Assembly: GCA_963823335.1 (NCBI GenBank)
Contig: CAWGLD010000001.1
Coordinates: 96,001-160,000, forward strand
Direction of reading: 5' to 3'
Source of the DNA: an uncultured delta proteobacterium
GTDB taxonomy: Bacteria; Desulfobacterota; Desulfobacteria; Desulfobacterales; B30-G6
Length of the DNA: 64,000 nt
The position numbers and the translations under genes were made by a program. The notes below the pieces were generated by a model. The model was not told the origin of the DNA. It saw only the letters and a program-made list of their open reading frames with translations, and searched no databases. Below are positions 185 to 22,745 of this stretch, piece after piece; position 1 is the first letter of the stretch, and each line of letters begins with the position of its first letter.

Positions 185-362
185 GTGGATCTCTCCAGCA
201 AAAATAAGGTTATCAGACACCCTAAAAATTACCGGTGTGCGAAAATAATCACAACAGGCCAAAACTTGCATTGATAGACCCTGCCGTGATACCTTGGTGA
301 TGACCAGATGGTATCTGAAAAATCCCCAACTTGTCGGATAGTTGGACTTGTCTCCATGTATC
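185..362 (+). repeat. ~175-bp cassette-separating module, copy R1 (variant right half)
   Basis: gtggatctctccagcaaaaataaggttatcag...accggtgtgcgaaaataatcacaac...ggacttgtctccatgtatc; aligns by eye with R2-R11. Confidence 0.95.
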
Positions 363-366
363 GGTA

Positions 367-2415
367 TTGCGACACGAAGTCGCGTATTTTAACTGTTCAG
401 CGGAGGCATTTAGCCTTTGTCTGAACCCAGTGTCCCGTCGCTGCGATCCTATGGAAGCATGCGCTCAAGGTGCATCCTTGACGGGTATGAAGCCTTCCCG
501 ACAATGCGCCGAAGTTCGCCTGTGCGAGCGGTGTGGAAACCGTGAGGTGGAAACGCTCCTGGAAGCTCCATCCGGGTGAGGTGTTAGGATAGGATACTAT
601 GGTCAACGTAAGTAAACACTTGTAACTGCCGTGAATATGAACAAGCCAAAGGAGCTGTGAGGCTTGAACCAAAACGGTAAGTGGGTGGTTCGGATGGATT
701 GCTGAACGTCCGACACGGGCAGTATTCCCACCGGCAGAGCAGAGTGGACCTAAGGTATTCGCTGTTGGATACGTGGAACGTGGTAACCTCATGCCTTCGC
801 CTTCGGGCAGGCTAACCGTAAGGCATGCTGTGGGAGGTATGAGGAGAGAGGATGGAAGAAGCGAAGGCCATCCTGTAATGGGGTGGATACAGGTTGAGAG
901 CCTTAGGCTCGATATTACCTAACCCGCGAGGGGGCTGACGTCCATCGGGTGCTTCGTTGCGAGATAGTTTGTAGAACTTCTAAAGGAGGAAAAGCAAATG
1001 AGGGCTGCTAAAAAGCAGATCCATGCGTCCTCCCGCCGTACTCTTAAGTGGACTTCCATAAACTGGAAGAAAGTTAAGAAGAAGGTGAAGGAGCTGCAGA
1101 TGCGTATCGCAAAGGCCGTTCGAGAAGGAAAGCTACGGCTGGTTAAATCTTTGCAGTGGCTTTTGACTCATTCGTTTTATGGTAAACTTTTTGCCATAAG
1201 ACGGGTTGTTACCAACAAAGGAAAAGCAACACCGGGATCCGATGGTGTTGTGTGGAACTCATCTAAAAAGAAGATGCAAGCTGTAAACCTGCTAAGCCGA
1301 AGAGGATATCGTCCTTTCCCCCTTCGGCGGGTTTATATACGGAAGAAAAACGGCAAACTCCGACCTTTAAGTATTCCCACCATGAGGGATAGAGCAATGC
1401 AGGCTCTATATGCACTTGCTCTGGTACCAGTAGCAGAGACAATCGGTGACCTAAATTCGTACGGGTTCAGAGATGGTCGATGTTGCGCCGATGCCATTAA
1501 GCAGTGCTACAATTGTCTGGCAAAGCGTCGTTCCTCGCGGTGGATTCTTGAGGCCGACATTCAAGCCTGCTTCGATAGAATCGATCACGAATGGATGCTC
1601 AACAATATCCTGACTGATAAAAAGATACTTAGAAGCTGGCTAAACGCCGGATACATAGACGAGGGTAAACTTTATCCAACCAAAGCGGGTACTCCACAGG
1701 GATCAGTTATCTCTCCTGTACTTGCCAATATGACCCTGGATGGACTGGAAGCGGCTATTAGAAATGCAGTTCCCAAGAACGCCAAGGTCAACATGATCCG
1801 GTATGCAGATGACTTTATCGTAACTGGAAAATCAGAAGAGATTCTCCAGGAAAAAGTCAAGCCTGCAATCCGCGCATTTCTCAGCCAAAGAGGTTTAAAT
1901 CTCTCAGGCGAGAAAACAAGGATCACCAGGATAGAGAATGGATTTGATTTTCTGGGCCAACATCTGAGAAAATTTGGGGATAAGTTTATTGTTACCCCAT
2001 CAAAGAACTCGGTGAAAGGCATTGTTTCCAAAACAAAGGAAGTCATCAAATCCCATCTTGGCAACGCAACAGCGGAGATGCTACGAGAGCTCAACCCAGT
2101 AATCCGGGGATGGGCCAACTATCACCGCCATGCATGCTCCAAGAAAGCCTTCAACTATGTTGATTCCCGCATCTTCAATAATCTCTGGATATGGGCTAAA
2201 AGAAGGCATCAGGATAAAAAGGCCCAGTGGATACGAAATCGTTATTTTCGAACCATTGGTAACCGGCAATGGTGTTTTTTTGCAACCAAAAAGGCAGAGG
2301 GAGGTGGGGTTGGCGTCATCGATTTGGTCTATATGGCCACGGTAAAAATAGTTCGTCATACGAAAATCCGTGGCAAGGCAAATCCTTACGACAATAGATG
2401 GCAGGGATATTTTTC
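367..2415 (+). mobile_element. Group II intron (CL1-like), 3'-truncated; no domain V/VI seen
   Basis: TTGCGACACG 5' end at 367; ~630-nt structured leader; RT ORF; no GAGCCG...CGGTTC domain V recognisable after the ORF; 3' limit approximate. Confidence 0.8.
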
Positions 2416-2443
2416 CAAACCTTGTAGAATGAAGACTTATTAG
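998..2443 (+). CDS. ltrA: Group II intron reverse transcriptase/maturase
   Basis: INWKKV..LQMRIAKA N-terminus, RPLSIPTMRDRAMQ, GTPQGSVISP, YADD, maturase LNPVIRGWANYH; no endonuclease domain. Confidence 0.95.
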   Translation: MRAAKKQIHASSRRTLKWTSINWKKVKKKVKELQMRIAKAVREGKLRLVKSLQWLLTHSFYGKLFAIRRVVTNKGKATPGSDGVVWNSSKKKMQAVNLLSRRGYRPFPLRRVYIRKKNGKLRPLSIPTMRDRAMQALYALALVPVAETIGDLNSYGFRDGRCCADAIKQCYNCLAKRRSSRWILEADIQACFDRIDHEWMLNNILTDKKILRSWLNAGYIDEGKLYPTKAGTPQGSVISPVLANMTLDGLEAAIRNAVPKNAKVNMIRYADDFIVTGKSEEILQEKVKPAIRAFLSQRGLNLSGEKTRITRIENGFDFLGQHLRKFGDKFIVTPSKNSVKGIVSKTKEVIKSHLGNATAEMLRELNPVIRGWANYHRHACSKKAFNYVDSRIFNNLWIWAKRRHQDKKAQWIRNRYFRTIGNRQWCFFATKKAEGGGVGVIDLVYMATVKIVRHTKIRGKANPYDNRWQGYFSKPCRMKTY

Positions 2444-2480
2444 CGAAATCTTCAGTTCGATAAAATTTTACAAACACAAC

Positions 2481-2972
2481 ATGTTGGGTATAATTAATAT
2501 GCGAACCTTTGGATTAGCATCTATTTCCGATCTAAAAGGGTTGGTTAAAGTAGCAAAATCTGCATTCATAGATGATGAAAGATTCAAACCCCGTGAGGCA
2601 ACCGCAGGCGGTCCACCCGGACATGATCAAATAGAACGACATCGAGAATGGCTCGACTCATTGCTATACTATAAATGTGAAGAACACGGATCTATTGTAG
2701 GAACATGTACGGTAGAGATAAATGGTGATGAAGCAAAGATACATGGTATTCATGTGGTTTCTGAATCAATGGATCAAGGCATTGGCTCATATATGTTGCG
2801 TGAGATACAGACCGGGATGCCACATATAACTAAATGGACGTTAATTACGCCAGATTACGCTATACGCAACCAGCATTTTTATGAAATAAATGGGTTTACG
2901 TTGAAGCAAAGAGGTGATGTAGAACCAGATCTCGGGTTCGGCTTTTATACATATGAAAAAAATGTCCTATAA
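2481..2972 (+). CDS. GNAT family acetyltransferase
   Basis: QGIGSYML motif A, N..FYE.NGF. Confidence 0.85.
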   Translation: MLGIINMRTFGLASISDLKGLVKVAKSAFIDDERFKPREATAGGPPGHDQIERHREWLDSLLYYKCEEHGSIVGTCTVEINGDEAKIHGIHVVSESMDQGIGSYMLREIQTGMPHITKWTLITPDYAIRNQHFYEINGFTLKQRGDVEPDLGFGFYTYEKNVL

Positions 2973-3059: not shown

Positions 3060-3234
3060 GATTTCTCCAACAAAACGGTAGATATCAGGCACGCCAAAAA
3101 TTACCGGTGTGCGAAAATAATCACAACAGCTCAAATCTTGCATTCATAAACCCCCTCGTGGTACCGTGGGGATGACCGAATGGTATCGGTAATATTGCCG
3201 TTGAACTTGATAACTGGACTTATCTCCATCTATC
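3060..3234 (+). repeat. Module copy R2
   Basis: gatttctccaacaaaacgg...ggacttatctccatctatc. Confidence 0.95.
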
Positions 3235-3281
3235 TGTACTTGGATGATATTTGGATTTTCACAGGGGATAAAGGTGGAATA

Positions 3282-4130
3282 ATGGGTTTTCATAGAAAGA
3301 CATTGGTCGATGGACTTATATTTGGCGAAGGCCCGCGTTGGCATGATGATCGCCTATGGTTTTCTGATATGCAGGCAGGCTTAGTTATGGCCACAGATAT
3401 TGATGGAAATTGTGAAAAAATTGTTGATGTGCCAGGGAGCCCATCGGGTCTCGGATGGCTACCAGACGGCCGGCTATTGGTTGTGTCTATGATCGATCGG
3501 CGTTTGCTCAGGATGGAAGGCGAACGGCTCATTGAACATGCTGACCTGAGTAATATTGCCACCTGGCATTGCAACGATATGGTTGTAGATGGCAAGGGAA
3601 ACGCCTATATTGGTAATTTTGGTTTCGATTTAGAGGTTAATGATATCAAGCCTGTTGAAGCCACAATGGCCATGGTAACCCCTGAGGGTGAAGTTACGCC
3701 TGCTGCTGATGGGCTACTGTTTCCAAATGGAACAGTTATTACCTCAGATGCCAGAACTCTAATTGTTGCTGAAACATATGGAGCAAGGCTCACAGCTTTT
3801 GATATTCAATCAGATGGTACTCTGACGAATCGTCGTCTGTTCGCTGATGTCTCTCCACACTTCCCTGATGGGATATGCCTCGACACTGAAGGTGCAATAT
3901 GGGTTGCTGATCCAGTTGGTGGTGAATGCATTCGTGTACTCGAGGGGGGTGAAATTACCCATAGAATTGATACAGGGCGCGGATGCTTTGCCTGCATGCT
4001 TGGGGGGGCGAATCGGAATACACTTTTTATGATGACTGCCGGTGATTTTAGAACAGATACCGTTGTACGGGCCCAAAATGGTAAGGTTGAATATGTTGAA
4101 GTTGATGTACCAGGTGCTGGTTGGCCGTAA
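3282..4130 (+). CDS. SMP-30/gluconolactonase/LRE family protein
   Basis: GEGPRW, ND..VD..G, FPNG, PDGICLD; ATG at 3282 follows an RBS-like aaggtgg. Confidence 0.9.
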   Translation: MGFHRKTLVDGLIFGEGPRWHDDRLWFSDMQAGLVMATDIDGNCEKIVDVPGSPSGLGWLPDGRLLVVSMIDRRLLRMEGERLIEHADLSNIATWHCNDMVVDGKGNAYIGNFGFDLEVNDIKPVEATMAMVTPEGEVTPAADGLLFPNGTVITSDARTLIVAETYGARLTAFDIQSDGTLTNRRLFADVSPHFPDGICLDTEGAIWVADPVGGECIRVLEGGEITHRIDTGRGCFACMLGGANRNTLFMMTAGDFRTDTVVRAQNGKVEYVEVDVPGAGWP

Positions 4131-4218: not shown

Positions 4219-4398
4219 GTGGATGTCGCCAACAAAAACAAGGTTATCAGACCCCTTAAATATTACCGGTGTGCGAAAATAATCACAACCGACCGAATCT
4301 TGAATTAATAGTAGTTCTCATGGTACCGTGGAGATGACCGAATGGTATCGGTAATATTGCCGTTGAACTTGATAACTGGACTTATCTCCATCAATCAC
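4219..4398 (+). repeat. Module copy R3
   Basis: gtggatgtcgccaacaaaaac...ggacttatctccatcaatcac. Confidence 0.95.
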
Positions 4399-4553
4399 AA
4401 CTTTGATGAATGTTGTGATAGCCATCTCAGAATAATACTATTGGTTGATTCTTTCTTTTCGGTTTGAATCTCGTAAGGTATTTTTTTTGCAAAAGAACTT
4501 TTTCAGTGCGAAGGAAGCAGAACTTCATACTTTTAATAAAGAAAGGAGGAATC

Positions 4554-5009
4554 ATGAGAATATTTGTTAAGATTGGGATAGTGTTTCTGGTCTTGGCCTT
4601 AAGTTTCGGTATCGCCTTGGCCCAATTTGCCAAAACTGAAGATGCCATTGAATACCGGAAGTCCGTAATGCAGGTAATCAAGAAACATTTTGGTAGCATG
4701 GCCAGTGTTGTTAAAGGCGAAACACCTTATGATCAGGCTGCATTCCTTGAAGACGCAAAGGTCGTGGCAATGTTGTCGAAACTGCCATGGGAGGCTTCTA
4801 TGGTTCCCGGTTCAAATGAGGGTCAAACAACATTAAACGAAAAAGCGTTGAAGGATAAAGAGGGATTTATGGCTGTTGCAAAACGGTTCCAAAACCATAG
4901 CAGTGAACTAGCTGCGGCAGCAGAAAGTGGTGATATGGGAAAAATAAAGAAGCAGTTCGGAGCCACCGCTCAAACATGTGGCAGTTGCCATAAGCCCTAC
5001 CGAAAATAA
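4554..5009 (+). CDS. Class II cytochrome c (c'/c556)
   Basis: Signal peptide, C-terminal CGSCHKPYR heme motif, RBS aggagg. Confidence 0.9.
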   Translation: MRIFVKIGIVFLVLALSFGIALAQFAKTEDAIEYRKSVMQVIKKHFGSMASVVKGETPYDQAAFLEDAKVVAMLSKLPWEASMVPGSNEGQTTLNEKALKDKEGFMAVAKRFQNHSSELAAAAESGDMGKIKKQFGATAQTCGSCHKPYRK

Positions 5010-5019
5010 GTGCCCGGAT

Positions 5020-5623
5020 TCAGTTTATTATCAAATAGACAACTACAAGGGAAATTCCGAATATTATAGTGGCAGTCCAATGATTGCCGCCAGGTGGTGG
5101 TGCATCGCCAGGCCACATCTTGATACCCGTGAACATGGGTTTAATCAGGTTTTCATGTTTGACAACCAGGTAAAATATGATGGCTGTCAAATGAACAGCT
5201 ATAAGGCATCCGATCACAATAGCGTTGATGTTGTGGATGCGGGTAAGTGCGCTGCTGACGGAATTGCTCACCAAAGGGTAAAGCGGTCCTTCAGTGAATA
5301 TGTCATCGCTGGCAAATAGCCCAGTCATTGCTTGTAGCAACAGGGTGAGGAGCATAGCAACGACTGACCACCCCCCGAGGGGATTATGTCCTAGATAATG
5401 AGGCACATCCTTTTTAATAAGGCCGATTGCGTATTGTAATACAATTGATGGTCCACGAACAAAATTGACAAATCGAGAATGGTATCCACCCAAGACACCC
5501 CAAACAAAGCGAAAAAACAAAAAGATTAGCACTAAATATCCGCTATACATGTGGTAGGTCATTAAATTGCCACCGATTTTAGCGGTCACAACGCAGTTGA
5601 TTACCAAAACTGCTAGCACCCAA
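5020..5623 (-). pseudogene. Cytochrome b/b6-domain protein, N-terminus removed by IS256
   Basis: GHNPLGGW, H-bearing TM helices, HENLIKPMFTG; reading frame runs into the IS end at 5624. Confidence 0.8.
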
Positions 5624-6948
5624 GAGGGTGTTCAAAATTTTGTGTCAGTCTAACTGAAAGCTGATATATACAGCCCAAAGGAGACTGACATGCCAAAAGA
5701 TAATGCAGATTTTGATTTCCAGAAAGCCCTCAAAGCCATCCAATCAGGCAAGCCCCTTACTGGCAAAGACGGGGTGCTCACCCCATTAATCAAGAACCTA
5801 ACCGAAGCTGCACTCGAAGGGGAGTTAGACTCCCATCTTGGACAGGAGATAGCGGCCAATCGAAGAAACGGTAAGAGCAAAAAGACCATCAAGACCCTGA
5901 ACGGCTCCTTCGAACTGAACACTCCCCGTGAGCGCAACGGCACTTTTTCACCCCAGCTGATTAAAAAGCATCAGACGACCATCAGCGATGAGATCGAAGA
6001 AAAAATCATTGCCATGTACGGCCTGGGCATGAGCTATAAAGACATATCTTTTCATCTTGAGGATATCTATGGCATTTCTGTCTCTAAGGGCACTCTGACT
6101 GCGATTACAGATAAAATCATTCACACCGTGAAAGAGTGGCAAGCCCGGCCGCTTGAAACGATATATCCCATTGTCTGGCTTGATGCCATACACTACAAAA
6201 TCCGTGAAGATGGCAAGGTCCTCAGTAAGGCTGTTTACACGATCCTCGGGGTCAATATTGAAGGCCGCAAGGAGGTCCTTGGCCTGTATATCTCAGAGAA
6301 CGAAGGGGCCAACTTCTGGCTGCAGGTGCTGACCGATCTCTCTAACCGTGGCGTTGCCGATATCCTGATCGCCTGTATTGATGGGCTAAAAGGCTTTCCA
6401 GAAGCCATCGAGACAATCTTCCCCAAAACGGAAGTGCAACTTTGTGTGGTGCATCAAATTCGGAATTCCTTAAAATACGTTGGCTCCAAAAACCAGAAGG
6501 AATTCATGGTCGATCTCAAGCGCGTCTACAAAGCAGCCAACAAGGATTTAGCCGAATCCGAATTGGACAAGCTCGAAGCCAAGTGGAACGACAAGTATCC
6601 GATTGTCATTAAGTCCTGGCGCAACAACTGGGAGCGTCTGAGTCAATTCTTCAAATACCCGGAGGATATCCGCAGGATCATTTACACAACGAACACCATT
6701 GAGGCGGTTCACCGTCAATTCCGTAAGCTGACCAAGACTAAAGGCGCTTTTCCGAACCAGGACAGTTTGTTGAAATTACTGTATATGGGCATCCAGAATG
6801 CCAGTAAAAAATGGACCATGCCGGTTCAGAACTGGTCATTAACTATCTCTCAGTTGGCTATATTTTTTGAGGGCAGACTGGATAAAGAATTAAAGCTCTG
6901 ATATGATTAATTACAATTTAAAACTGACACAGAATTCTGAACATACCC
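5624..6948 (+). mobile_element. IS256-family insertion sequence
   Basis: Imperfect terminal IRs gagggtgttcaaaattttgtgtcagt / actgacacagaattctgaacataccc; no target duplication seen. Confidence 0.9.
5690..6901 (+). CDS. IS256-family (Mutator) transposase
   Basis: RNGK, WLDA, DGLKGF, QLCVVHQIRNS, IYTTNTIE. Confidence 0.95.
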   Translation: MPKDNADFDFQKALKAIQSGKPLTGKDGVLTPLIKNLTEAALEGELDSHLGQEIAANRRNGKSKKTIKTLNGSFELNTPRERNGTFSPQLIKKHQTTISDEIEEKIIAMYGLGMSYKDISFHLEDIYGISVSKGTLTAITDKIIHTVKEWQARPLETIYPIVWLDAIHYKIREDGKVLSKAVYTILGVNIEGRKEVLGLYISENEGANFWLQVLTDLSNRGVADILIACIDGLKGFPEAIETIFPKTEVQLCVVHQIRNSLKYVGSKNQKEFMVDLKRVYKAANKDLAESELDKLEAKWNDKYPIVIKSWRNNWERLSQFFKYPEDIRRIIYTTNTIEAVHRQFRKLTKTKGAFPNQDSLLKLLYMGIQNASKKWTMPVQNWSLTISQLAIFFEGRLDKELKL

Positions 6949-7123
6949 GATTTCTCCAACAAAAAGGTAAATATCAGCTCTCTGAAATTGTACCGGTGTG
7001 CGAAAATAATCACAACCGACCGAACCTTGCGTTGGCGTACCTTTCCGTGATACCTTGGCGATGACCATATGGTATCGGTGATATTCCCGTTGAACTTGAT
7101 AACTGGACTTATCTCCATGTATC
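6949..7123 (+). repeat. Module copy R4
   Basis: gatttctccaac...ggacttatctccatgtatc. Confidence 0.95.
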
Positions 7124-7189
7124 AAAGGCGTGAGCACTATTAGATTTCCCCCAGAATATCTTTTCCAAAAGGTTCAAAATGACCATTTC

Positions 7190-7356
7190 TTGACCCATCC
7201 TTTTAATTCATGTATATATCGCATATCGCATCTAAATCACACCTGATCTGAAGCCGAATTTAAACTTGAACCTGAGTTGAGCTCATTCTCGATCTGTTCT
7301 CACCTTTTCCAAGACATATCATCTTCTTCAAACCTCAAAACCAGAAGGTGATCCAC
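7190..7356 (+). promoter_or_regulatory. Conserved promoter and leader of adenylate cyclase genes (copies ~52166-52328 and ~55893-56047; partial ~18494-18570)
   Basis: TTGACC-17bp-TA(T/C)nnn, then aatcacacctgatctga and ttccaagac.tatcatcttcttcaaacc..aaccagaaggtgatc. Confidence 0.7.
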
Positions 7357-9123
7357 ATGCCCACAGAAAAAAGAGCCACACGCAAACTCAGAGCCATTCT
7401 TTCTGCTGATGTTAAAGGCTACAGCATCCTTATAGCGGATGATGAGACCTTCACAATCAAAACTATTAAAGAATATCGAAGCATAATATCCAACTGCATC
7501 GAGCAATATGCCGGTCGGGTTGTGGATAGTCCCGGTGATAACATACTGGCGGAGTTTGCAAGTGCGGTTGATGCTGTACAGTGTGCAGTGGAAATTCAAA
7601 AACAATTGAAGAAAGAAAATGACCGGCTTGTAGAGAACAAAAGGCTGGAGTTCAGAATTGGTGTGAACATCGGTGATGTTGTGCAGGATGAGAATCGTAT
7701 CTATGGTAATGGTGTTAACATTGCCTCAAGGATTGAGGGTTTGGCAGATCCTGCTGGCATCTGTGTATCTCGCAGTGCATACGATCAGATAAAAAATAAA
7801 ATGGGTTTCAGTTTTGAATATATGGGGGAACACTCTGTTAAAAATATATCTGAACCAGTAAGAGTTTATAAAGTTCTAATGCATTCTAATTCACCATCAC
7901 CTTTGGTTGAAGAGACGCTGAAGCTGCCGGACAAACCATCCATTGCAGTCTTGCCATTTGTAAACATGAGTGGAGATCCTGAGCAGGAGTATTTTTCTGA
8001 TGGAATAACAGAAGACCTCACAACTGTTCTGTCACGGAATTCGTTGATGTTTGTGATAGCACGGAACTCCAGCTTCGCCTACAAAGGAAAGGCAGTCGAT
8101 GTAAAAAAAATTAGCAAAGAACTTGGGGTTCATTATGTATTGGAAGGAAGCGTACGAAAGGCAGGAACAAGAATCCGTGTAACAGCACAGCTTATTAATG
8201 GGATTAATGGAAAGCATGTATGGGCAGAGAAATATGATGGTGAGCTTCAAGACATTTTCGATTTGCAGGATCAAATAACACAAAAGATTGTTGCTTCAAC
8301 CCAAACCCAAGTAGCATTAAGTCTTGGAGAAGTCAGAACAGCTGCAAGACATGAAAACTTAGATACTTGGGATATTACCGCAAAAGCTTTAAAATATAGT
8401 TATGATCTAACTGAAGACAGTCTTAGAAAGGCTGAAAAACTCTTACGATCAGCCATAAAGTCAAATCCAAAATCTGATTCTGCTTATGCTTTGCTTGCAA
8501 GTGTTTTATTTCATCTATTATTGATGGGGTATGAACAGGAGAACGTTAGTGAAATTTTAAATGAATCTTTTCAATACTCAGCAAAAGCAATATCAATTAA
8601 TGAATCTAATGAAATTGGGCATTGGATTAACGGAAACCTTCAGCTATTTTCCAGAAGAAATCATGATTATGCGCTTGCGGAGTATGATCGTCTGATAGAA
8701 ATAAATCCTAATAATTCGTTAGCATATGGCTCTCTCGGCGCTGCCCTAACATTTTCCCGAAAATATGATCAAGCAATAAAAAATATTGAATTAGCAATAA
8801 GAATTAATCCTATGGACCCAAGCATATTTTTTCGATTCTCTGAAATAGCATTGGCTTATCTTCTTAAAGGAAAATATAACGATGCAATTGATTGGTCAAC
8901 CAAGTGTATCCATAAAAGATCCAGTTGGATAGCTGGTCATTTTGTTTTAATAGCATCTCTTGTAAATCTTAATCGTCTCGATGAAGCAAAACAAGCAACC
9001 AAGGAGTTGTTGAATACCAACCCAACTGCAAGAGCATCTGATATTTCAATGTATCCGTTTAAATACGCTGAAGATGTGATAAAGTTACAAAAAGCTCTCT
9101 GTAAAGCAGGTCTACCTGAATAA
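7357..9123 (+). CDS. Class III adenylate/guanylate cyclase with TolB-N-like and TPR domains
   Basis: ILSADVKGYS, PGDN, FRIGVNIGD, GNGVNIASRIE; DKPSIAVLPF; TPRs. Confidence 0.9.
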   Translation: MPTEKRATRKLRAILSADVKGYSILIADDETFTIKTIKEYRSIISNCIEQYAGRVVDSPGDNILAEFASAVDAVQCAVEIQKQLKKENDRLVENKRLEFRIGVNIGDVVQDENRIYGNGVNIASRIEGLADPAGICVSRSAYDQIKNKMGFSFEYMGEHSVKNISEPVRVYKVLMHSNSPSPLVEETLKLPDKPSIAVLPFVNMSGDPEQEYFSDGITEDLTTVLSRNSLMFVIARNSSFAYKGKAVDVKKISKELGVHYVLEGSVRKAGTRIRVTAQLINGINGKHVWAEKYDGELQDIFDLQDQITQKIVASTQTQVALSLGEVRTAARHENLDTWDITAKALKYSYDLTEDSLRKAEKLLRSAIKSNPKSDSAYALLASVLFHLLLMGYEQENVSEILNESFQYSAKAISINESNEIGHWINGNLQLFSRRNHDYALAEYDRLIEINPNNSLAYGSLGAALTFSRKYDQAIKNIELAIRINPMDPSIFFRFSEIALAYLLKGKYNDAIDWSTKCIHKRSSWIAGHFVLIASLVNLNRLDEAKQATKELLNTNPTARASDISMYPFKYAEDVIKLQKALCKAGLPE

Positions 9124-14098: not shown

Positions 14099-14340
14099 GT
14101 GGATATCTCCAACAAAAACAAAGATATCATGCACGCCAAAAATTACCGGTGTGCGAAAATAATCACAAATTAAAAGGGTGAGTCCGAGCCATGGATTCGC
14201 CCCTTTTTTATTGGCACAAAGCAGCGTTATTAGGGTCTACAGTTTGACACCAGGTTTAATGATGCGATAGACTGCATATATCCAGATGGTATCGGTGATA
14301 ATTAGGCTGAGCTTGATAACTGGACATCTCTCCATGTATC
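14099..14340 (+). repeat. Module copy R8, centre replaced by unrelated DNA (14169-14281)
   Basis: Left part 14099-14168 and right part 14282-14340 match the consensus. Confidence 0.9.
14172..14209 (+). terminator. Intrinsic-terminator-like hairpin inside R8
   Basis: aaaagggtgagtcc...ggattcgcccc followed by a T-run. Confidence 0.55.
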
Positions 14341-14433
14341 CGTATATTTCGTTAATAATTTTTTATTTAAAATTCCTGGCCGGTTATAATGGTTGTTCTA
14401 CAGTTAAATTTGGTCTCTACAAAGGATGATTAA

Positions 14434-15741
14434 TTGAAGCAGAAGCACACATATCAAGAATTGAAAAAAGAGAATGAATTATTAAGGAAGCAACTGCAAA
14501 TCCTTCAAGAGAACGCGGATCGGTTCAATGACATCGCTGAGAATGCATTAGAATGGATCTGGGAAGTCGATAAGGAAGGAAGGTATACATATTCAAGCCC
14601 TGTCGTAAAGGTTATCTTAGGCTATGAACCCGAGGAGGTTTTAGGAAAACACTTCTCTGATTTTTTTCATCCCAAGGATAAGAAAAAAATGTTAGCTGAG
14701 GCCTCCAAGGCTTTCGATCAAAGATTTCCCTTCAGGAAATTTATTAACCAAAATGTACATAAAGATGGCAATAAAAAGGTGTTTCTTTTAACGAGTGGTA
14801 TCCCTGTGTTTGATTCTGAAGGGGCATTTTCGGGATATCGTGGGGCTGACATGGATGTAACAGAACAATATGTGGCTAAAAAAGCTCTAAAAGAAAGCGA
14901 AGAACACCTACGATCACTAATGCAGAGAGCCTCAGGGTTTGCCATTTACCGGTTGGCATATAATAAAGTTTCCCCATATTCCTTGCGGGTTGTTTTAGCC
15001 AGTCCATCCGTGAAAGACATCCTGGGCATACCTGATCAAACGAAATTCGAGATGTGGTTTGAAAATATCCATGCTGATGACAGGGAAAGAATCATAAAAG
15101 CTAATTTGAAAGCGTTTGAAACGAATGAATTTAATGAAGTCATGAAGATTAATCATCCTGACAAAAAGGAGCATCGCTGGATTCATTCAATTGCTAAAGG
15201 CATTTTCTCGCAATATGGCGAATTACAATATATCAATGGCATTATAATCGATATTACAGAACGTAAACTTGTTGAAGAGGCTTTGATTGAGAAAGAGAAA
15301 GAATTAGAATCCAAGACAAACAAGCTTGAAGAGATAAATGTCGCCCTGAACGTCCTGTTAGAAAAAAGAGAGGAAGATAAAATACTCTTGCAAGAGCAGG
15401 TACTGTCCAACGTAAAAAAATTGGCGATCCCCTATGTCGAAAAATTAAAAAAAGGCACCCTCACCGAAACACAAATTGCCTTGCTTGATGTTTTAGAATC
15501 AAGTTTGCACGAAATTATTTCACCGTTTTCCCTCAAGCTGGCCTCTAATTCTTTCGGATTAACGCCCGCCGAAATCAAAGTGGCTTCTCTTATAAAACAG
15601 GGCAAAGGGACAAAAGAAATAGCAAAGATGCGAAATCTTTCGCATAAAACAGTAGCACGCCATAGGGAGAATATAAGAAATAAGCTCGGTATAAAAAATA
15701 CAAAAGTCAATCTACAGTCCCACCTAATTTCCTTCGCATAA
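14434..15741 (+). CDS. PAS-PAS-LuxR HTH transcriptional regulator
   Basis: Two PAS/PAC folds; LTPAEIKVA..G.GTKEIA....LS.KTV..HR.NIR.KLG. Confidence 0.9.
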   Translation: MKQKHTYQELKKENELLRKQLQILQENADRFNDIAENALEWIWEVDKEGRYTYSSPVVKVILGYEPEEVLGKHFSDFFHPKDKKKMLAEASKAFDQRFPFRKFINQNVHKDGNKKVFLLTSGIPVFDSEGAFSGYRGADMDVTEQYVAKKALKESEEHLRSLMQRASGFAIYRLAYNKVSPYSLRVVLASPSVKDILGIPDQTKFEMWFENIHADDRERIIKANLKAFETNEFNEVMKINHPDKKEHRWIHSIAKGIFSQYGELQYINGIIIDITERKLVEEALIEKEKELESKTNKLEEINVALNVLLEKREEDKILLQEQVLSNVKKLAIPYVEKLKKGTLTETQIALLDVLESSLHEIISPFSLKLASNSFGLTPAEIKVASLIKQGKGTKEIAKMRNLSHKTVARHRENIRNKLGIKNTKVNLQSHLISFA

Positions 15742-16029
15742 CACCCATAATAAATAGGTACTATATGGGCTATAAAATGGCATTGATTGTCTTGTCAATT
15801 TGAATTAGAAAATAATTATAGGGATGCGCTCTGGGCTCATCGCCCATTGGCACCTCCAACCCTGTAAAAAGCCCCTGAGAAGATAATTCATTTGCCAGTA
15901 CCTTCTCCATCTTGGGGGCTTTTTCAATATGGATCTTCAGCCCGACCGATTCCTTACCTTGGAATATTGTATTATGTTAATTTGTTTTTGGACAGGTTAG
16001 GACTGTCTATATCTTTCAACCTAAATCTC

Positions 16030-18255
16030 ATGGCTATGAAACCGACATTACCCACAAAGCTTATCAGTACTACTAAAGAAGGGTTGTCTGGCATAATGAC
16101 AGGAACGGTTGCCATCACTGTTAGTTTGTCGATGGCTGCGCTGATATTTCATGGTAGTCTTGCTAATTTTATTGGTTACGGCATAGGAGCCGTTTTATGT
16201 ACTACCATATTTATCAATTTAATTTTACTCATAGGATCTTCTTATAAGGGGATAGTCGCCGCTCCTCAATCTGCAACCTCGATTGTTTTAGCGACTGGTA
16301 TTAGCCTATTATATGATAAATCTCTTCAAGGAGATAACCAACAAGACTCGCTTTTGCTTATTGCCGGCTTTGTTTTATCAACCTCTATCATTACAGGAAT
16401 ATTTCTATTTGTTGCCGGTAAATTCAATCTGGGGAAATTGGCTCGCTTTATCCCTTACCCTGTGATCGGGGGTTTTTTAGCTGGAACGGGCTATTTAATA
16501 ATCAAAGGCGCTGTTTCTTTCATGGTCGGTTTTACAATTTCCTTCGATACGCTCCCATTTCTAATTTCAAATCAATCGTTTCTAAAGCTATTGCCTGGAA
16601 TAATAATAGCATTTATCATGTTCTTTCTGTCAAAAACATCTCGCCATCTGATTCTTTTCCCGTTATTTATATTGTGTTCTATATGCCTGTTTTATAGCGG
16701 TTTATGGATCCTGGACCTGTCCCATGAAACTGCCTTGAAGTTGGGTCTTGTCATGCAATTAAACACAGGTGAATATTTTAATTTATTGAATATATCTAAT
16801 ACAATATCCAAAATTGACTACTCCATTATCTTAGAACACAAATGGACTATATTTTCGATTGTTTTCATTACGTCGATTGCACTATTGCTGAATTTGAGTA
16901 GTTTAGAACTTATCGTCAAAGATGACATAGATCTTGATAAAGAGTTAAAGTTGTGTGGTACCGGCAACATCGTTTCTGGCTTTTTTGGGGGCATCGTCGG
17001 ATACCAAATGCTCGGACCTTCAGCGTTAAATCATACCCTTGGATTAAAGTCCCGGGCCCCAATAATAGTATTAATAATAATGAGTTTTATTATTCTTTTT
17101 TGGGGTCATGATTTCTTAAAGTTTTTTCCTGTCCCACTTATCGGCGCTTATTTACTGTTTATCGGGTTGAATTTTCTACACGACTTTTTGTATGATAGTT
17201 GGCTGAAATTGCCGTTAAGTGAATACATAATAGTGCTTTGTATTTTAATGATAACTGTATTCAAAGGTCTTCTTTCTGCTATTGCATTTGGAACGATTGC
17301 AGCTATTTTCATATTTATCCTCAATTATGCAAAAGTAAAAAACATAAAAAGCATAACAACCGGTGAACATCATAGAAGCAATGTAGAAAGATCTCCCATT
17401 GAGGAGGAATTGTTCAAGCGTGAAGGTAGGAGAATACGTGTATACCGGTTGAATGGTTATCTGTTTTTCGGAAGCGTATACAATTTGTACTTGAATGTTA
17501 GGGAATATACACTTGAAACTGGAAACAATCATGCTGGATTCATTGTTTTGGACTTTAAAGATGTACAGGGCATGGACTCGTCAGCCATTCATAGTTTTTT
17601 AAAAATTAGGCAAATTGTACAGAATGGTCAAAAGGTCAAGCTGATATATACCCAATTGAACCCTAATCTCCACAATTTATTTATAAAAGGATCGGTGTTA
17701 ATTGGTAAAAATGACTCAAGTGTCTACGATGATTTGGATCGAGGTCTCGAATGGTGTGAAGAACAAATACTTAATGAGAATGGTTTTAAAGCTGACAGAT
17801 TAAATCAATTCACCGCCGTGCTTGAAAAAATATTCGAGAATGAAAATGAAACTATTCGGTTTAAGAGCTACCTGACCAGAAAATTTTTCAAAAAAGACAC
17901 TGTCCTTATGAAAAAAGGTGAGTTCTCAGAAACTCTTTATTTCATCGAAACCGGACAATTTTCAGTATTAAGAAATGACCATGAGAAATCTTCAATAAGG
18001 TATCGAAAAATTGGGAGTGGAGCTATAATTGGCGAGATGGGTTTTTTTTCTAACAACAATAGAACAGCTTCAGTTATTTCAGATAAAGATAGCTTTGTTT
18101 ATGAATTAAACCTTACGAATATGAAAAAAATGGAAAAAGACTGTTCTAAAATAGCGTTCAAGTTTCAAAATTACGTAATAAAATTATTGTCAATGAGATT
18201 AAGCCGATCAACTCAGGAAATAAATTCACTATTAATTGATTATAAAAACCGTTGA
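16030..18255 (+). CDS. SulP-family anion transporter with STAS and cNMP-binding domains
   Basis: FIPYPVIGGFLAGTG; GYLFFG..LDF..V.GMDSSA; GEMGFF...RTASV. Confidence 0.9.
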   Translation: MAMKPTLPTKLISTTKEGLSGIMTGTVAITVSLSMAALIFHGSLANFIGYGIGAVLCTTIFINLILLIGSSYKGIVAAPQSATSIVLATGISLLYDKSLQGDNQQDSLLLIAGFVLSTSIITGIFLFVAGKFNLGKLARFIPYPVIGGFLAGTGYLIIKGAVSFMVGFTISFDTLPFLISNQSFLKLLPGIIIAFIMFFLSKTSRHLILFPLFILCSICLFYSGLWILDLSHETALKLGLVMQLNTGEYFNLLNISNTISKIDYSIILEHKWTIFSIVFITSIALLLNLSSLELIVKDDIDLDKELKLCGTGNIVSGFFGGIVGYQMLGPSALNHTLGLKSRAPIIVLIIMSFIILFWGHDFLKFFPVPLIGAYLLFIGLNFLHDFLYDSWLKLPLSEYIIVLCILMITVFKGLLSAIAFGTIAAIFIFILNYAKVKNIKSITTGEHHRSNVERSPIEEELFKREGRRIRVYRLNGYLFFGSVYNLYLNVREYTLETGNNHAGFIVLDFKDVQGMDSSAIHSFLKIRQIVQNGQKVKLIYTQLNPNLHNLFIKGSVLIGKNDSSVYDDLDRGLEWCEEQILNENGFKADRLNQFTAVLEKIFENENETIRFKSYLTRKFFKKDTVLMKKGEFSETLYFIETGQFSVLRNDHEKSSIRYRKIGSGAIIGEMGFFSNNNRTASVISDKDSFVYELNLTNMKKMEKDCSKIAFKFQNYVIKLLSMRLSRSTQEINSLLIDYKNR

Positions 18256-18428
18256 TTTCTCCAACGAAAACAAGGTTATCAGCCCCCTAAAATATTACCG
18301 GTGTGCGAAAATAATCACAACCGACCGAATCTTGCATTAATAATAGTTCCCATGGTACCGTGGGGATGACCGAATGATATCTGACAATTTTTCAGATTGT
18401 CGGATAGTTGGACTTGTCTCCATAAATC
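18251..18428 (+). repeat. Module copy R9 (same variant right half as R1)
   Basis: gttgatttctccaacg...ggacttgtctccataaatc; overlaps the SulP stop codon. Confidence 0.95.
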
Positions 18429-18661
18429 TGTATTGCGAGAATAGTAGTTTTTCATCAAAATATTAAAGTCACCCAGTGGCAATTCACCCATACCTTGACC
18501 CATCATGACGAATCGTGTATATACCTTATAACATACTTGAATCACACCTGATCTAAAGCTGTTTCTCATTGTTTACACGTAGCCTAAGCCCTTTCTCGAC
18601 TTGTCAGTACCTTCCCAAAAGGTATTATAATTATACAAATCAACAACTTTGGAGGTGACTA

Positions 18662-19171
18662 ATGCCGGCCTATCTGAAAGAAGTGGATGTAGTCCCAGAA
18701 GTTTTAAAATTTAAATCTGCCCTCACCGTCAGCTGTCGATTCTGTCCTGCAGCCAGTTTAGCCATACGAAACAATAAACCTTATATAGAATTCTTTCGCA
18801 GGTTGCTTAAGACTGAACCGTATGAAGAGCTTATTGACAAAATGCAATCACGTCTGAAAAATGAGGGTCTTAAAACAGGCGTGTTTAAAGGTAATCTCCT
18901 TAATTATCTCATGTGCATGTGGACTTCAGGACGCCGAAAGAAATTATTAAAGCGTGCAAGTCAATTTGAAGCCGTTGTTGTTATGGGTTGTGAAAATGCA
19001 TATGAAAGCGTGCAAGATATTCTTAAATCGACCGATTGCCAAGTATTTCATGGCATGGAATCTGAAGGTCTTATGAACGTTATTCCAAAAGTTCATCTAC
19101 CGTTCAATATTTCGCTCGAAAAATTCAAAATAACTCCGATAACACTAAAAGCGAAACAAACGGAGGAATGA
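18662..19171 (+). CDS. Hypothetical Cys-containing protein
   Basis: RBS ggagg; CRFC, MGCE motifs. Confidence 0.7.
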   Translation: MPAYLKEVDVVPEVLKFKSALTVSCRFCPAASLAIRNNKPYIEFFRRLLKTEPYEELIDKMQSRLKNEGLKTGVFKGNLLNYLMCMWTSGRRKKLLKRASQFEAVVVMGCENAYESVQDILKSTDCQVFHGMESEGLMNVIPKVHLPFNISLEKFKITPITLKAKQTEE

Positions 19172-19189: not shown

Positions 19190-19352
19190 GTCTTTTCAAC
19201 AACTATGCAGATATCAGGTGCTCCCGAAATTAAAATTATCACAACAGACCAAATCTTGCATCCATAGACACCTACGTGGTACGCTGATGATCACCAGATG
19301 GTATCGGTAAATTTATCAGGGAAATTGATAACTGGACTTTTCTCCATGTATC
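19190..19352 (+). repeat. Module copy R10 (degenerate; lacks accggtgtgcg)
   Basis: atcacaacagaccaaatcttgca...ggacttttctccatgtatc. Confidence 0.9.
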
Positions 19353-19642
19353 AAAGATTGATGTAGAACATAAAAAGGCATCTATAGAATATTAGTGTTA
19401 TGCATTTTTAAAACCTATACTAATATTTTTTTAGAAAACGAATAATAATGAAAAATCATATTCTAGTTCTTGTCGTAGGAAAGTTGAGGTGGAAATCAAT
19501 TGGCAGCTTCAACCCGAATACGTTTCCACCGGAATTACGAAGCACGGCAATGAATTGTGGTGATCAGCTTGCTTTAAAAAATAAATCGAACTTTGTTTAA
19601 AAAGAAAATAGAATATCATAAATTATCGAGAAGGCGCAGCCT

Positions 19643-20899
19643 ATGAAAAAATACTTCATTCTGACGTTAGCTGTTTGCTTGGGTTTAATTAGCAACCCGG
19701 TTTCGGCTTGCACCGGCCTGGTGGCAAATGACCATGAGCGCGTGTTGGTGGGCAACAATGAAGACTGGTTCAACCCGCGCACTAAAATCTGGTTCATACA
19801 GCCGTTGAACGACCGGTATGGCAGCGTGTTTTTTGGCTTTGATAATTACTGGCCTCAAGGCGGTATGAATCAGAAAGGGCTATTTTTTGATGCATTCGCT
19901 TTAGAACCAAAGGAGGTAGATGGGCAGGAGGGTAAACCCCGTTTTAAAGGCAACCTGATAAAAGAGGTAATGGCGACCTGTGCGACGGTAAAAGAGGCTT
20001 TGGCCTTGTTAGATAAATACAGTCTACATTTCATGACTCGTTTTCAGATGTTCGTGGCCGATGCCTCTGGCGACTCTGCCATTATCGAAGGCAACGCCAT
20101 AATTCGTAAAGAAGTGAATTATCAAGTGGTGACCAATTTTCGCCAATCAGAAACCGACCCCAGTGAGACTTCTTGTTGGCGCTACCGGGTCGCCAATGAC
20201 ATGCTGATGAATTGCCGTGAAGATAAGCTTCACTGTATACGCAGTATTCTGGACGCTACTCACCAGAAGGGGGACTACCCGACGCTTTATTCAAACATAT
20301 ATGATCTGAAAGCTAAGCGGGTTTATGTATACTATTTTCACAATTTTCAAGAAGGAGTTGTGATTGATCTCGAAAACGAACTCATAAAAAAGCCTGGAAT
20401 TCTTGATCTACCCGATTTATTTTCACCAAATCTTGAGGCACAGGCATATCTTGCTCAGTTCACCAACCTCAAGAAGGAATATACACACAACGTACCTAAA
20501 TTTGTAGTGCGCTATCCTGAAGAGTATGAGGAGGACAAAACACTGGATCCCACCCAGGTCTTTCTGGCCAAAAGTCGTTACGGGCAGCCGGTACTAACAG
20601 TCTCAGTAACTCCTGCTGAGGCTAAGATGACGCTTTCCAGGGTCGGCAGTGAATATTATGCACATGGGTTACGCCAGTTCGGAAAACAAGTTCAGATTAT
20701 CTCCAATCGTCCGGCCAAGTTGGCCGACGGTTCAGAGGCCTATGAGACTAAAATTGTTTGGCAGTATCAGGGAAAAACCAAATTAAATAGTCTGGTGCTT
20801 TCCGCCTTTAGAGAGGATAAGCTTATCAATGTGGCCCTACATCACACTGGTGAGCTGAATTATTTGAAACACATACCTTACAGTCTGAGCTTTGAATAG
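19643..20899 (+). CDS. Secreted Ntn-hydrolase (C45/choloylglycine hydrolase-like) with extra C-terminal domain
   Basis: Signal peptide then CT nucleophile, GNNED, GGMNQKGL, VTNF, TLYS.IYD. Confidence 0.8.
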   Translation: MKKYFILTLAVCLGLISNPVSACTGLVANDHERVLVGNNEDWFNPRTKIWFIQPLNDRYGSVFFGFDNYWPQGGMNQKGLFFDAFALEPKEVDGQEGKPRFKGNLIKEVMATCATVKEALALLDKYSLHFMTRFQMFVADASGDSAIIEGNAIIRKEVNYQVVTNFRQSETDPSETSCWRYRVANDMLMNCREDKLHCIRSILDATHQKGDYPTLYSNIYDLKAKRVYVYYFHNFQEGVVIDLENELIKKPGILDLPDLFSPNLEAQAYLAQFTNLKKEYTHNVPKFVVRYPEEYEEDKTLDPTQVFLAKSRYGQPVLTVSVTPAEAKMTLSRVGSEYYAHGLRQFGKQVQIISNRPAKLADGSEAYETKIVWQYQGKTKLNSLVLSAFREDKLINVALHHTGELNYLKHIPYSLSFE

Positions 20900-21127
20900 C
20901 GCCGCTAAACAGATAACTGAAAGCACTCGGCCTTGAAGAACCTACAAGTACCCTGTCAGTATCGCGAGGAAGTGCCGGATTGTGGTCACAAACGGGTACC
21001 TAAAAATCATATGGGATTGAAAACCCGTGATAGCTGGTACCTTTCCTATAGGTAGATGTTGTGGAGGCGAGCGAGCCCGTAGGGTGTAGCTCGCGGAGTC
21101 TCCACAACTCTATCGATAGGGGTTTTC

Positions 21128-21301
21128 AAGCCTCCAACAAAAACAAGGTTATCAGATACCTAAAATTTCACCGGTGTGCGATTATAATCACAACAGGCTG
21201 AATCTTGCATTGATAAGAATTTCCGTGGTGCTTTGGTGATGCCCAGATGGTATCGCTGATATTTACATCAAACTTGATAACTGGACTTATCTCCATAAAT
21301 C
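21128..21301 (+). repeat. Module copy R11
   Basis: cctccaacaaaaacaagg...ggacttatctccataaatc. Confidence 0.95.
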
Positions 21302-21411
21302 TGTATGTTGAGCGAGTTTCCCCAAAAGTAACGCAATTATCATATTTCAAGGCCTATTTGACCAAGAATTAATGCTTAGCTATACCTTTAAATCAAAAAG
21401 GAGGTCGTAGG

Positions 21412-22527
21412 ATGAAATTTAGAATACTATTGAGTGCATTGTTGGTATCTCTGCTGTTGTTTAGCACCCATATTGCGAAAGTCCATGCCTGTACTGGTAT
21501 AAGATTGTCAGCGAAGGACGGATCGACAGTCTATGGAAGAACTATGGAATGGGGGACTTTTGACCTAAATTCCAGAGTTGCAATTTTTCCACGTGGATAT
21601 GAATTTACCGGTCTCACTCCTGATGGTCATAACGGTAAAAAGTGGAAATCGAAATACGGCATTGTCGGCCTTGATCTGCTGGGAAAAGACCTGCTCGCTG
21701 ATGGTATGAATGAAAAAGGGCTGGCAACGGGCCTTTTTTATCACCCCGGTTTTGCCAGCTATATGAAGTACGATAAGAGTCAGGCAAATAATTCGATCAC
21801 AGCCGTTGATATTGTCTCGTTTATTCTTTCTCAGTTTGCCACGATAGATGAGGTCAGAAGCGGTATGGAAAGTGTGAGGGTTGTTCCGGTTGTGGAAGAG
21901 GCAATAGGGATTCCAGTACAGGGGCATTGGATGGTGACAGAACCCTCTGGAAAGTCGATTGTCATTGAGTATCTGGACAACAAGCTGCGAATTTTCGACA
22001 ATCCGTTGGGCGTTATCACAAATTCTCCCAGCTACGATTGGCATATGACCAATCTGCGTAATTATATAAATCTCTCGGCAGTTGCACTTCCTACAAAAAA
22101 GATCAAAGATCTCGATTTTTCTCCTTTGGGAGGTGGAAGCGGTATGATCGGTCTTCCGGGTGATTTCACGCCCCCGTCCCGTTTTGTTCGTGCGGTAGCG
22201 TGGTCCCAGACTGCCCGACCACTGGAGAAATCGGACGAAGCGATGTATGAACTTTTCCGTATTCTTGACAACTTCAATGTACCCCTTGGGGCTGCTGAAG
22301 GCTCGGATAGTGAGCAGACAAATCTGAAAGGGATGCGAAGCTCAACAATCTGGACTACCGGATGGGATCTTACAAAGAGGGTGCTTTATTTCCATACTCA
22401 GCATAACCGTCGTGTGCGTCAAGTTACGCTAAATAAAATTGACTTTTCAGGAAAAGAAATTGCTCACATTCCACTCGACGATAAAAAAGATCAAGACATT
22501 AAAGACATTTCACTAAACGCAAAATAG
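21412..22527 (+). CDS. Choloylglycine hydrolase/penicillin V acylase family
   Basis: ACT nucleophile, GRTME, DGMNEKGL, TNSP, GLPGDFTPPSRFVRA. Confidence 0.92.
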   Translation: MKFRILLSALLVSLLLFSTHIAKVHACTGIRLSAKDGSTVYGRTMEWGTFDLNSRVAIFPRGYEFTGLTPDGHNGKKWKSKYGIVGLDLLGKDLLADGMNEKGLATGLFYHPGFASYMKYDKSQANNSITAVDIVSFILSQFATIDEVRSGMESVRVVPVVEEAIGIPVQGHWMVTEPSGKSIVIEYLDNKLRIFDNPLGVITNSPSYDWHMTNLRNYINLSAVALPTKKIKDLDFSPLGGGSGMIGLPGDFTPPSRFVRAVAWSQTARPLEKSDEAMYELFRILDNFNVPLGAAEGSDSEQTNLKGMRSSTIWTTGWDLTKRVLYFHTQHNRRVRQVTLNKIDFSGKEIAHIPLDDKKDQDIKDISLNAK

Positions 22528-22745
22528 AAAGTGGCTGACTTGTGATTTCTCCAACTCATCAACGGTGTAGAGGCCTTCTGAAAAGTGGTGATACCACATT
22601 GTCAATTCATGCCCTGACTCGGTTTTCAATTCTGTCAATTCAAGTAAGTATAGATCAGGACATATCATGATATGCATTTTTTTTGGAGCTTGCAGGTTTT
22701 TGACTGAATTTGGATCCACAATTATGGCGAGGTCCCCTTTTCAAT

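Follow-up and report, generated by a model that had tools for sequence, protein, structure and literature searches.

Integrons are the textbook system for the capture of genes as cassettes. Genes can also be delimited by pdif sites, which are 28 bp long, alternate in orientation and use the host XerCD. Here we analyse a ~185-nt repeated sequence, hereafter called the module, that separates cargo genes in the genome of an uncultured member of the Desulfobacterales. The window, i.e. the whole stretch of DNA that was analysed, is 64,000 nt long (G000:C1:96001-160000, where G000 is the source genome, a 4.37-Mb assembly of 11 contigs, G001 upwards are the genomes of relatives, and C followed by a number is a contig). 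All these genomes were assembled from metagenomes. A sequence-only reading of the window had described its first third (185-22555) as an integron-like cassette array built from a module without attC consensus, and had proposed a different capture system.

Excerpts of two papers describe recombinase-less elements bounded by att sites, which persist and, through site-specific recombination, build tandem arrays with cargo, namely cis-mobilizable elements (CIMEs), accreted integrative and conjugative or integrative and mobilizable elements (ICEs or IMEs) and the ssrA islands of Dehalococcoides (PMC5704250, PMC3146451). According to an excerpt of a third paper, group II introns of the IIC-attC type target the attC sites of integrons (PMC3001079).

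We found that the module represents a real, clade-wide repeat family, which in co-oriented arrays marks the edges of exchangeable cargo. It looks like a counterpart of the integron that is so far undescribed. Our full-text literature search, judged on titles and the openings of abstracts, returned no description of the module or of its recombinase. New here is the derivation of the module from a recombinase element of ~1.1 kb with a small, Xer-like tyrosine recombinase.

The module and its distribution

A repeat search of the window detected 10-12 copies of a ~185-nt direct repeat within 185-22555, and a profile for nhmmer was built from nine window copies. With both methods we recovered all 11 copies that the sequence-only reading had listed, 0-3 nt from the starts it gave (E-values of 1e-12 to 1e-57). 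The left-end site with which it closed the array at 22542 is real, as it consists of the left-end motif (GAT-T-TCTCCAAC) followed by non-module DNA. Four partial copies were found in the window beyond this range, at 45617, 48293, 49285 and, inverted, at 51760. The copies are as follows.

188-372, plus strand: module copy 1 (profile 2-186, nhmmer E=6e-53), with a group II intron directly after it
3060-3244, plus strand: module copy 2 (nhmmer E=5e-56)
4222-4406, plus strand: module copy 3 (nhmmer E=8.5e-57)
6949-7132, plus strand: module copy 4 (nhmmer E=6e-54)
9174-9354, plus strand: module copy 5 (nhmmer E=7.5e-57)
10286-10468, plus strand: module copy 6 (nhmmer E=3e-53)
11055-11236, plus strand: module copy 7 (nhmmer E=4e-53)
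14102-14345, plus strand: module copy 8, matched by nhmmer in two pieces (profile 2-104 and 109-181, resuming at 14273), with extra central DNA
18254-18438, plus strand: module copy 9 (nhmmer E=4e-53)
19193-19358, plus strand: module copy 10 (nhmmer E=8e-30), left part diverged
21129-21311, plus strand: module copy 11 (nhmmer E=8e-53)
45617-45697, plus strand: partial module (profile 100-180), between genes for an alpha/beta hydrolase and a metallophosphoesterase (profile and Pfam)
48293-48425, plus strand: partial module (profile 46-180; profile search)
49285-49398, plus strand: partial module (profile 10-124; profile search)
51662-51872, minus strand: inverted partial module (profile 73-186; inverted match at 51760); its right end abuts a 5' fragment (98 nt) of the group II intron

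A profile search of all G000 contigs yielded 88 module matches, 52 of which are near full length. They form about ten clusters, each on a single strand, at 86-117 kb, 160-165 kb and 1.51 Mb of C1, on C4 (two clusters), C5, C7 and C9, and at other places. The array on C7 contains 19 module copies in 36 kb. Solitary and partial copies are also present outside the arrays. A shorter (~110 nt), degenerate variant of the module at G000:C4:168420-168530 was missed by the profile, and a stretch upstream of a cargo gene for a DnaJ-domain protein in G007:C20 may be a similar short variant. Given such degenerate modules, the true number of junctions is probably underestimated.

The module was found in 12 of the 14 other genomes of the same family and in one from a second family. 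Another 25 genomes, representing as many further families of the order, gave no match. The array architecture is present in 14 of the 41 genomes searched, G000 included. An exact 24-mer of the module occurs in 23 stretches of a species-level genome collection, 22 of them titled as Desulfobacterales or Thermodesulfobacteriota.

Anatomy of the site

The module starts with T-CTCCAAC and ends with T-CTCCAT, which are direct repeats of an asymmetric T-CTCCA core. The consensus of the left junction, based on 70 junctions, is g-A-T-n-t-CTCCAAC-AAAA ... GATATC, and that of the right junction, based on 84, is TTGATAACTGGACTT-n-T-CTCCAT-n-t-A-T-C. On the cargo side, the ATC after the right core is conserved at 92-97% and the GAT at 57-77%. 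Each junction is thus half module arm and half short cargo-side arm, with a GAT ... ATC inverted repeat around the core. In this, the module junctions resemble the attL and attR of a small integrated element.

The sequence of the module is conserved over its full length and includes a nearly invariant block of 27 nt. RNAalifold analyses of 92 copies (52 from G000 and 40 from four relatives) detected no consensus structure on either strand, and the module has no Rfam match at E<=1. No inverted termini were found in the consensus of copies and junctions. A 42-codon open reading frame (ORF) on the minus strand of the module was rejected as a gene, being intact in just 32 of the 88 copies.

A recombinase-bearing parent element

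A minus-strand module copy located 3.8 kb past the window end, at G000:C1:163770-164847, is split, its two parts (profile 113-186 and 4-67) flanking a 940-bp insert. The insert harbours a PF00589 gene (1e-17) with a Shine-Dalgarno site and a terminator hairpin, antisense to the module. This recombinase gene is the only gene of an element of ~1.1 kb. A second, truncated recombinase copy of G000 is found on C9 beside a module left half, and in G001 module halves flank the recombinase gene in the same layout. We examined 63 loci for relatives of the recombinase in other Desulfobacterales genomes for flanking module halves, and found them on both sides in seven, on one side in nine, and with no profile-detectable half in the remaining 47. 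The recombinases of the half-flanked loci are nearly all at least ~78% identical. The sequence-only reading had expected a tyrosine recombinase encoded elsewhere, which is the case, and had proposed to look for it beside the array start; it resides inside a module copy instead.

The leader upstream of the recombinase gene and the centre of the module are homologous, and one deletion junction is common to all module copies. Within the extra central DNA of the copy at 14102 is a hairpin similar to the terminator that follows the recombinase gene, and this copy looks like a different deletion derivative. Because of the shared layout, the homologous centre, the common deletion junction and the terminator-like hairpin, the modules are amplified copies of one internal-deletion derivative of the ~1.1-kb recombinase element. 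At two recombinase loci of other genomes, L045 and L044, unrelated, structured-looking DNA comes right after the stop codon and replaces the terminator and the left end. A module left half is present 2 kb further on in L045, which may represent a nested insertion.

The recombinase is a two-domain protein of ~280 aa. Its best model is of the archaeal XerA type (100 bits, with a cut-off of 220), and it is under the cut-offs of XerC, XerD and XerA. Its best relatives of solved structure are XerA (4a8e) and XerD (1a0p), with which the catalytic R, K, HxxR, H and Y residues align, RIGE, HDLRR, RHS and QIY being in register with both. Based on these alignments, the recombinase looks functional. We found no relative above ~30% identity in plasmid and phage collections, and in a protein atlas it matches only generic 'site-specific integrase' clusters.

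We also surveyed the reading frame at 46 recombinase loci, 41 of which could be judged. In 27 of these, the ORF that contains the start is out of frame with the body of the gene at a run of A8-A10, with A9 in 22 loci, A10 in one, and A8 in another register in four. Among the 14 in-frame loci, 12 have no run, one has A8, and one has an internal change. Two distant copies in G007 (55-58% identity) have A9 as well, and the out-of-frame state persists down to ~55-60% protein identity. Since it is kept across such divergence, these data point to a programmed one-base slip at the A-run rather than decay. The frame would be restored if the transcript lost one A. An A-run frame change of this kind recalls the control of transposases in some insertion sequence (IS) families.

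Cargo exchange between genomes

In four congeners, DNA colinear with the left flank of the island (C1:80001-84115) is found at 83-87% (83% in G001), and G001 is also colinear with a mid-window block at 79-85%. On the right, the window resembles G001:C18 from the closing motif onwards, the DNA before this motif being unrelated. Between these flanks, comparison of window 1-26000 with five congeners yielded matches to modules, the intron, IS pieces and a cyclase paralogue family only. For the 36-kb C7 array, only cassette-sized matches were found in 14 genomes of the family. Conserved cargo synteny, which the sequence-only reading had named as evidence to the contrary, was thus not seen: congeners keep the flanks, at ~83-85% identity, but not the cargo, which is also unrelated from one interval to the next.

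Three cargo segments are far more alike between species than the core genome. The first, with an O-methyltransferase gene (C4:540979-541762), is 99.2% identical to G001:C18:1057-1840, with flanking module interiors at ~80%; the near-identical stretch extends from the right core to ~6 nt beyond the left core that comes next, of which both genomes share an unusual variant. The second, with the DnaJ-domain ORF (C7:208278-209242), is 98% identical to G007:C20:117005-117971, from after the right core to inside the left core. The third, a pst block from C4:168420 downward, is 98.5% identical over 3757 bp to G005:C11; it has a right core at its start in both genomes and runs to the contig end. We read its upstream junction on C4, the ~110-nt stretch missed by the profile, as a degenerate module. 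All five judgeable ends of these 98-99% matches are within a few bases of a core, which bears out the breakpoints at CTCCA cores put forward from the sequence alone. Were this homologous recombination, resolution would be expected within the invariant block in the interior of the module and not at the module edge.

A pair of near-identical 1.8-kb segments on C7 and C4 was considered as a moved cassette and rejected, as it represents an IS with inverted termini inserted into the core. The two copies (G000:C7:231150-232953 and C4:535465-537268, 97% identical) code for a 501-aa DDE_Tnp_1_6 protein, have 16-nt inverted termini and a 3-bp duplication (TCC), and are located inside the TCTCC core at different junctions. 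This suggests the core as a target of the IS, too. With the lactonase cargo as query, a metagenome scan collected 80 loci at 53-75% identity, none with a module, and is uninformative on shuffling.

Array ends

Behind the closing left core, the array ends in a conserved sequence that we called the T site.

22540-22600, plus strand: T site at the array terminus, a left-core motif followed by a conserved sequence of ~45 nt
25490-25590, plus strand: second copy of the T site, 3 kb beyond the first (repeat search)

The T site has five copies in G000. Three follow closely on the final module of an array (those of C1, C5 and C7), one is inside the C7 array, and one is the copy 3 kb further in the window. 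Searches for tRNA and tmRNA genes in the window and where the C7 array ends gave none. An integrase gene as a consistent neighbour after the T site was rejected, since C7 has one (375 aa, PF00589) and C1 does not. At the array start, no attI or cassette promoter (Pc) was recognised.

A group II intron at the module junction

The intron that follows module copy 1 has two features.

368-2420, plus strand: group II intron (Rfam RF02012, 79.5 bits), ends approximate, ~12-17 nt after the right core of copy 1
998-2443, plus strand: reverse transcriptase/maturase ORF of the intron (Pfam RVT_N, RVT_1 and GIIM), with no endonuclease domain

Matches to the intron in relatives end at 2419-2420, and the leader that follows it (2430-2469) is that of the other GNAT cassette. 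No match to D5-D6 (RF00029) was reported for the intron. All three intron 5' ends of G000 (window 368-2420, window 51662-51759 on the minus strand, and G000:C9:19332-19586) abut the right end of a module, and three module-plus-intron joins are present in G007:C20. By analogy with the IIC-attC introns at attC, the intron seems to home to the right junction of the module.

Cargo genes

Pfam analyses confirmed the gene content that had been read from the translations, with two GNAT proteins, an SGL lactonase, a cytochrome c', a cyclase with TPRs, a PAS-LuxR regulator with a SulP transporter, and two Ntn-type hydrolases. The cargo is as follows, with family assignments from Pfam unless stated otherwise.

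2481-2972, plus strand: GNAT acetyltransferase
3282-4130, plus strand: SMP-30/gluconolactonase-like protein (SGL, 3.9e-46); 3282 is the likely start according to homologues, and the frame is open from 3180
4464-5009, plus strand: cytochrome c', in the cargo interval 4464-6901
5020-5619, minus strand: cytochrome b561, same interval
5690-6901, plus strand: IS256-type transposase, same interval
7348-9123, plus strand: nucleotide cyclase with TPRs, of a paralogue family (blastn)
9521-9967, plus strand: 148-aa ORF, no Pfam family
10529-11032, plus strand: GNAT acetyltransferase
11541-14000, plus strand: 819-aa protein with an fn3 domain
14434-15741, plus strand: PAS-PAS-LuxR regulator
15892-18255, plus strand: SulP-STAS-cNMP transporter, with a stop codon that overlaps the GAT beside the next left core
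18662-19171, plus strand: 169-aa ORF, no Pfam family
19643-20899, plus strand: AAT-family (Ntn) hydrolase
21412-22527, plus strand: choloylglycine-hydrolase-family (Ntn) protein (CBAH, 5e-72)

The 64 inter-module intervals of G000 contain 114 ORFs (101 kb) read in the direction of the module and 24 ORFs (12 kb) against it. By coding length, 89% of the cargo is therefore co-oriented, in agreement with the initial description of nearly all genes as such. The short distances to the next module that had been noted for the stop codons at 11032, 18255, 19171 and 22527 are correct, but tight packing is not a general rule, the distances in G000 ranging from -3 to 572 nt (median, ~70). The region has 30 promoter-like sites, compared with 26.7 +/- 4.9 in shuffled sequences, and there are weak sigma-70-like matches inside some module copies.

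Paralogues of the cyclase/TPR gene are located ~55 nt after modules in at least five genomes, with DNA identities of 68-77%. A conserved leader, CTTGACCCAT...AAATCACACCTGATCTGA, precedes genes of the cyclase/TPR type at window positions 7183-7254, 18488-18559, 52166-52253 and 55893-55980.

Other repeats of the window

An exact direct repeat of 300 nt is present at 29645-29944 and 43175-43474, 13.5 kb apart. It brackets a fragment of an IS110-family transposase and a set of genes colinear with another contig of G001, and this block may be a recent duplication or a composite element. A different repeat of ~175 nt at 22743-22920, also found inverted at 47110-47171, is present in many copies (80-97% identity) in each of the five congeners searched. 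It is not a tRNA and has no Rfam match at E<=1.

Mechanism and alternative explanations

We propose that core-directed site-specific recombination by the recombinase described here builds and shuffles the arrays, and give this reading a probability of roughly 0.55. The recombinase would act in trans from the rare full-length copies of its element, being kept scarce by the required one-base slip at the A8-A10 run, and would exchange strands in the T-CTCCA cores. A cargo segment would be released or inserted when the right core of a module recombines with the left core of the module after it, and a module when its own two cores recombine. Repeated events of this kind could string unrelated genes into co-oriented arrays ending in a T site, and the same events could move cargo between arrays and species. 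This model builds on the anatomy of the module, its derivation from the recombinase element, its distribution in the clade, the non-syntenic cargo and the breakpoints at the cores, all of which are observed. Catalysis of the exchanges by the recombinase, the position of strand exchange and the mode of expression of the cargo are what we infer.

Several observations weigh against this reading. G000 has a single full recombinase copy and a truncated one. No recombinase match at E<=1e-20 was found in G005, G012, G013 and G014, which have 5 to 20 or more modules, and the recombinases of G004 and G007 are just 55-63% identical, with flanks that are not this module. Assembly breaks at recombinase copies may hide some, as those of G001, G002 and G006 start at contig ends. 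In a distant genome whose recombinase is 61% identical, the element is present twice, and its ends are not amplified. Excision of cargo is predicted to leave tandem module-module junctions, of which a search at <=3 mismatches gave no real match. Candidate module-less junctions numbered only two in a fuzzy motif scan. One is interrupted by an IS, and the other, which could be a chance match, is in the window.

50655-50672, plus strand: candidate module-less junction, in which GAT, the core and TATC are joined directly, with a typical cassette leader after it

The exchanged unit is also not uniform, three other matches (85-95%) running from cargo into the following module, and further matches at 90-94% have just one end at a detectable core. 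There is no profile-detectable module beside the DnaJ cargo of G007. For the solitary module at C1:1737058, the left flank is syntenic in five congeners and the right one variable in all, with no clean empty site. No excised circles were found in the metagenome-assembled data. Lastly, misjoins at repeats could mimic shuffling in the fragmented genomes.

The alternative that fares best is a selfish derivative resembling a miniature inverted-repeat transposable element (MITE). The module would insert into GAT-n-T-CTCCAT-n-TATC-like targets in variable islands, and the cargo would turn over by ordinary horizontal transfer and homologous recombination. The common deletion junction implies that the copies were amplified as modules, and solitary and partial copies do occur outside the arrays. 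The half-sites conserved on both flanks are what target specificity would give, several genomes have modules and no detectable cognate recombinase, and the regions concerned are rich in IS elements, introns and other repeats. The sequence-only reading had held that copies scattered genome-wide in random orientation and context would indicate an ordinary MITE. The module is indeed a MITE-like miniature found genome-wide, with 88 matches, but its copies are clustered and co-oriented. Moreover, random insertion does not account for a gene co-orientation of 89%, nor independent insertion for cargo at 98-99% identity bounded by cores next to module interiors at ~80%. Homologous recombination would favour the 27-nt nearly invariant block over the core edge, and the T site common to three array ends is left unexplained. 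We thus consider this alternative unlikely, albeit a serious contender.

A second alternative is that the module is a cis-acting expression unit, with an upstream terminator and a downstream promoter or leader, which spread by duplication, its link with the recombinase being secondary. Strict co-orientation with the genes would be consistent with such a role, as would the short gap to the next start in some units (35 nt at the lactonase) and the weak sigma-70-like matches in some copies. Nevertheless, promoter-like sites are no commoner than in shuffled sequences, the 92 copies have neither a conserved RNA fold nor an Rfam match at E<=1, and the functions of the cargo are unrelated. As this proposal also explains neither the recombinase-bearing copies nor the core-bounded exchange, we find it quite improbable.

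The co-oriented units of one or two genes separated by a repeated site, and the targeting of that site by a group II intron as described for IIC-attC introns in an excerpt of PMC3001079, are reminiscent of a classical integron, or of a cluster of attC sites lacking an integron integrase (CALIN), with unusually long and divergent attC sites. However, the ends of the module are direct rather than inverted, there is no RYYYAAC...GTTRRRY pair or consensus hairpin, and the sequence is conserved over its whole length, unlike attC. TIGR02249 (IntI) searches of the whole genome gave 10 tyrosine-recombinase matches, none over the 265-bit cut-off (best, 88.5), and the embedded recombinase scores 32.9 bits. 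This is very hard to reconcile with an attC/IntI integron, and the sequence-only reading was right to set the array apart from integrons.

Finally, shuffling might be an assembly artefact of contigs misjoined at the 185-nt repeat, all genomes being metagenome-assembled, some relatives in 300-620 contigs, with recombinase copies often at contig ends, but we give this little credence, as the G000 arrays lie deep inside contigs of 0.4-2 Mb in an assembly of 11, the architecture recurs in 14 of 41 genomes, the recombinase or 24-mer records carry many different isolate names, and core-bounded identity is found inside long contigs on both sides.

If core-directed recombination does build the arrays, one may go a step further. 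Tentatively, and at somewhat less than even odds, a Desulfobacterales family would possess a second, independently evolved cassette platform, in which a 1.1-kb, slippage-controlled Xer-like element gave rise to a 185-nt double-core site that captures, concatenates and exchanges single genes and small operons across arrays and species, an analogue of integrons that works on conventional double-stranded DNA cores and not on folded attC DNA. Should a different clade of recombinases have built the same architecture, cassette platforms would have arisen as a solution more than once instead of being invented a single time. The flow of accessory genes in abundant sediment sulfate reducers would then have a dedicated vehicle, invisible to IntegronFinder and to IS and MITE finders. 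Its parts are compact and testable, with one small recombinase, two types of junctions and one terminal site. The A-run is a clear case of a frame change that may control a tyrosine recombinase, and the intron would be a second case of a group II intron homing to the recombination site of cassettes.

Comparison with known systems

The module arrays share with MITEs and IS derivatives, and with REPIN-RAYT pairs (repetitive extragenic palindromic doublets forming hairpins and their associated transposases), the many short internal-deletion copies of a rare coding element that keep both of its ends, and a low-copy enzyme gene flanked by the repeat. Unlike those, they lack inverted repeats at the termini, their enzyme belongs to the tyrosine recombinases (PF00589) and not to the DDE or HUH transposases, and the copies, which form clusters and are oriented like the genes, delimit exchanged cargo. 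The units of CIMEs and ssrA islands, as described in the excerpts cited above, are kilobases long, located in tRNA, tmRNA or conserved genes, and have a single att repeat. In contrast, the module arrays have no tRNA nearby, two cores per repeat, and cargo outside the element. As in the pdif modules of Acinetobacter plasmids, genes are bounded by Xer-type sites and found in different contexts; here, however, the sites are ~185 nt long and all direct within an array, and the recombinase is encoded by the element.

Features in common with integrons and CALINs are unrelated, co-oriented genes split by a repeated site, cargo that varies between relatives with breakpoints at that site, a tyrosine recombinase read opposite to the cargo, and a group II intron that seems to home to the site. 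The differences are that the recombinase is Xer-like, without the IntI signature, and its gene is inside a copy of the site. The ~185-nt site is conserved throughout, has no conserved hairpin, and has two direct-repeat cores in place of inverted R boxes. The distal end of the array has a conserved T site, and no attI or Pc was recognised. The module system is thus integron-like in its outcome, yet it fails both defining features of integrons.

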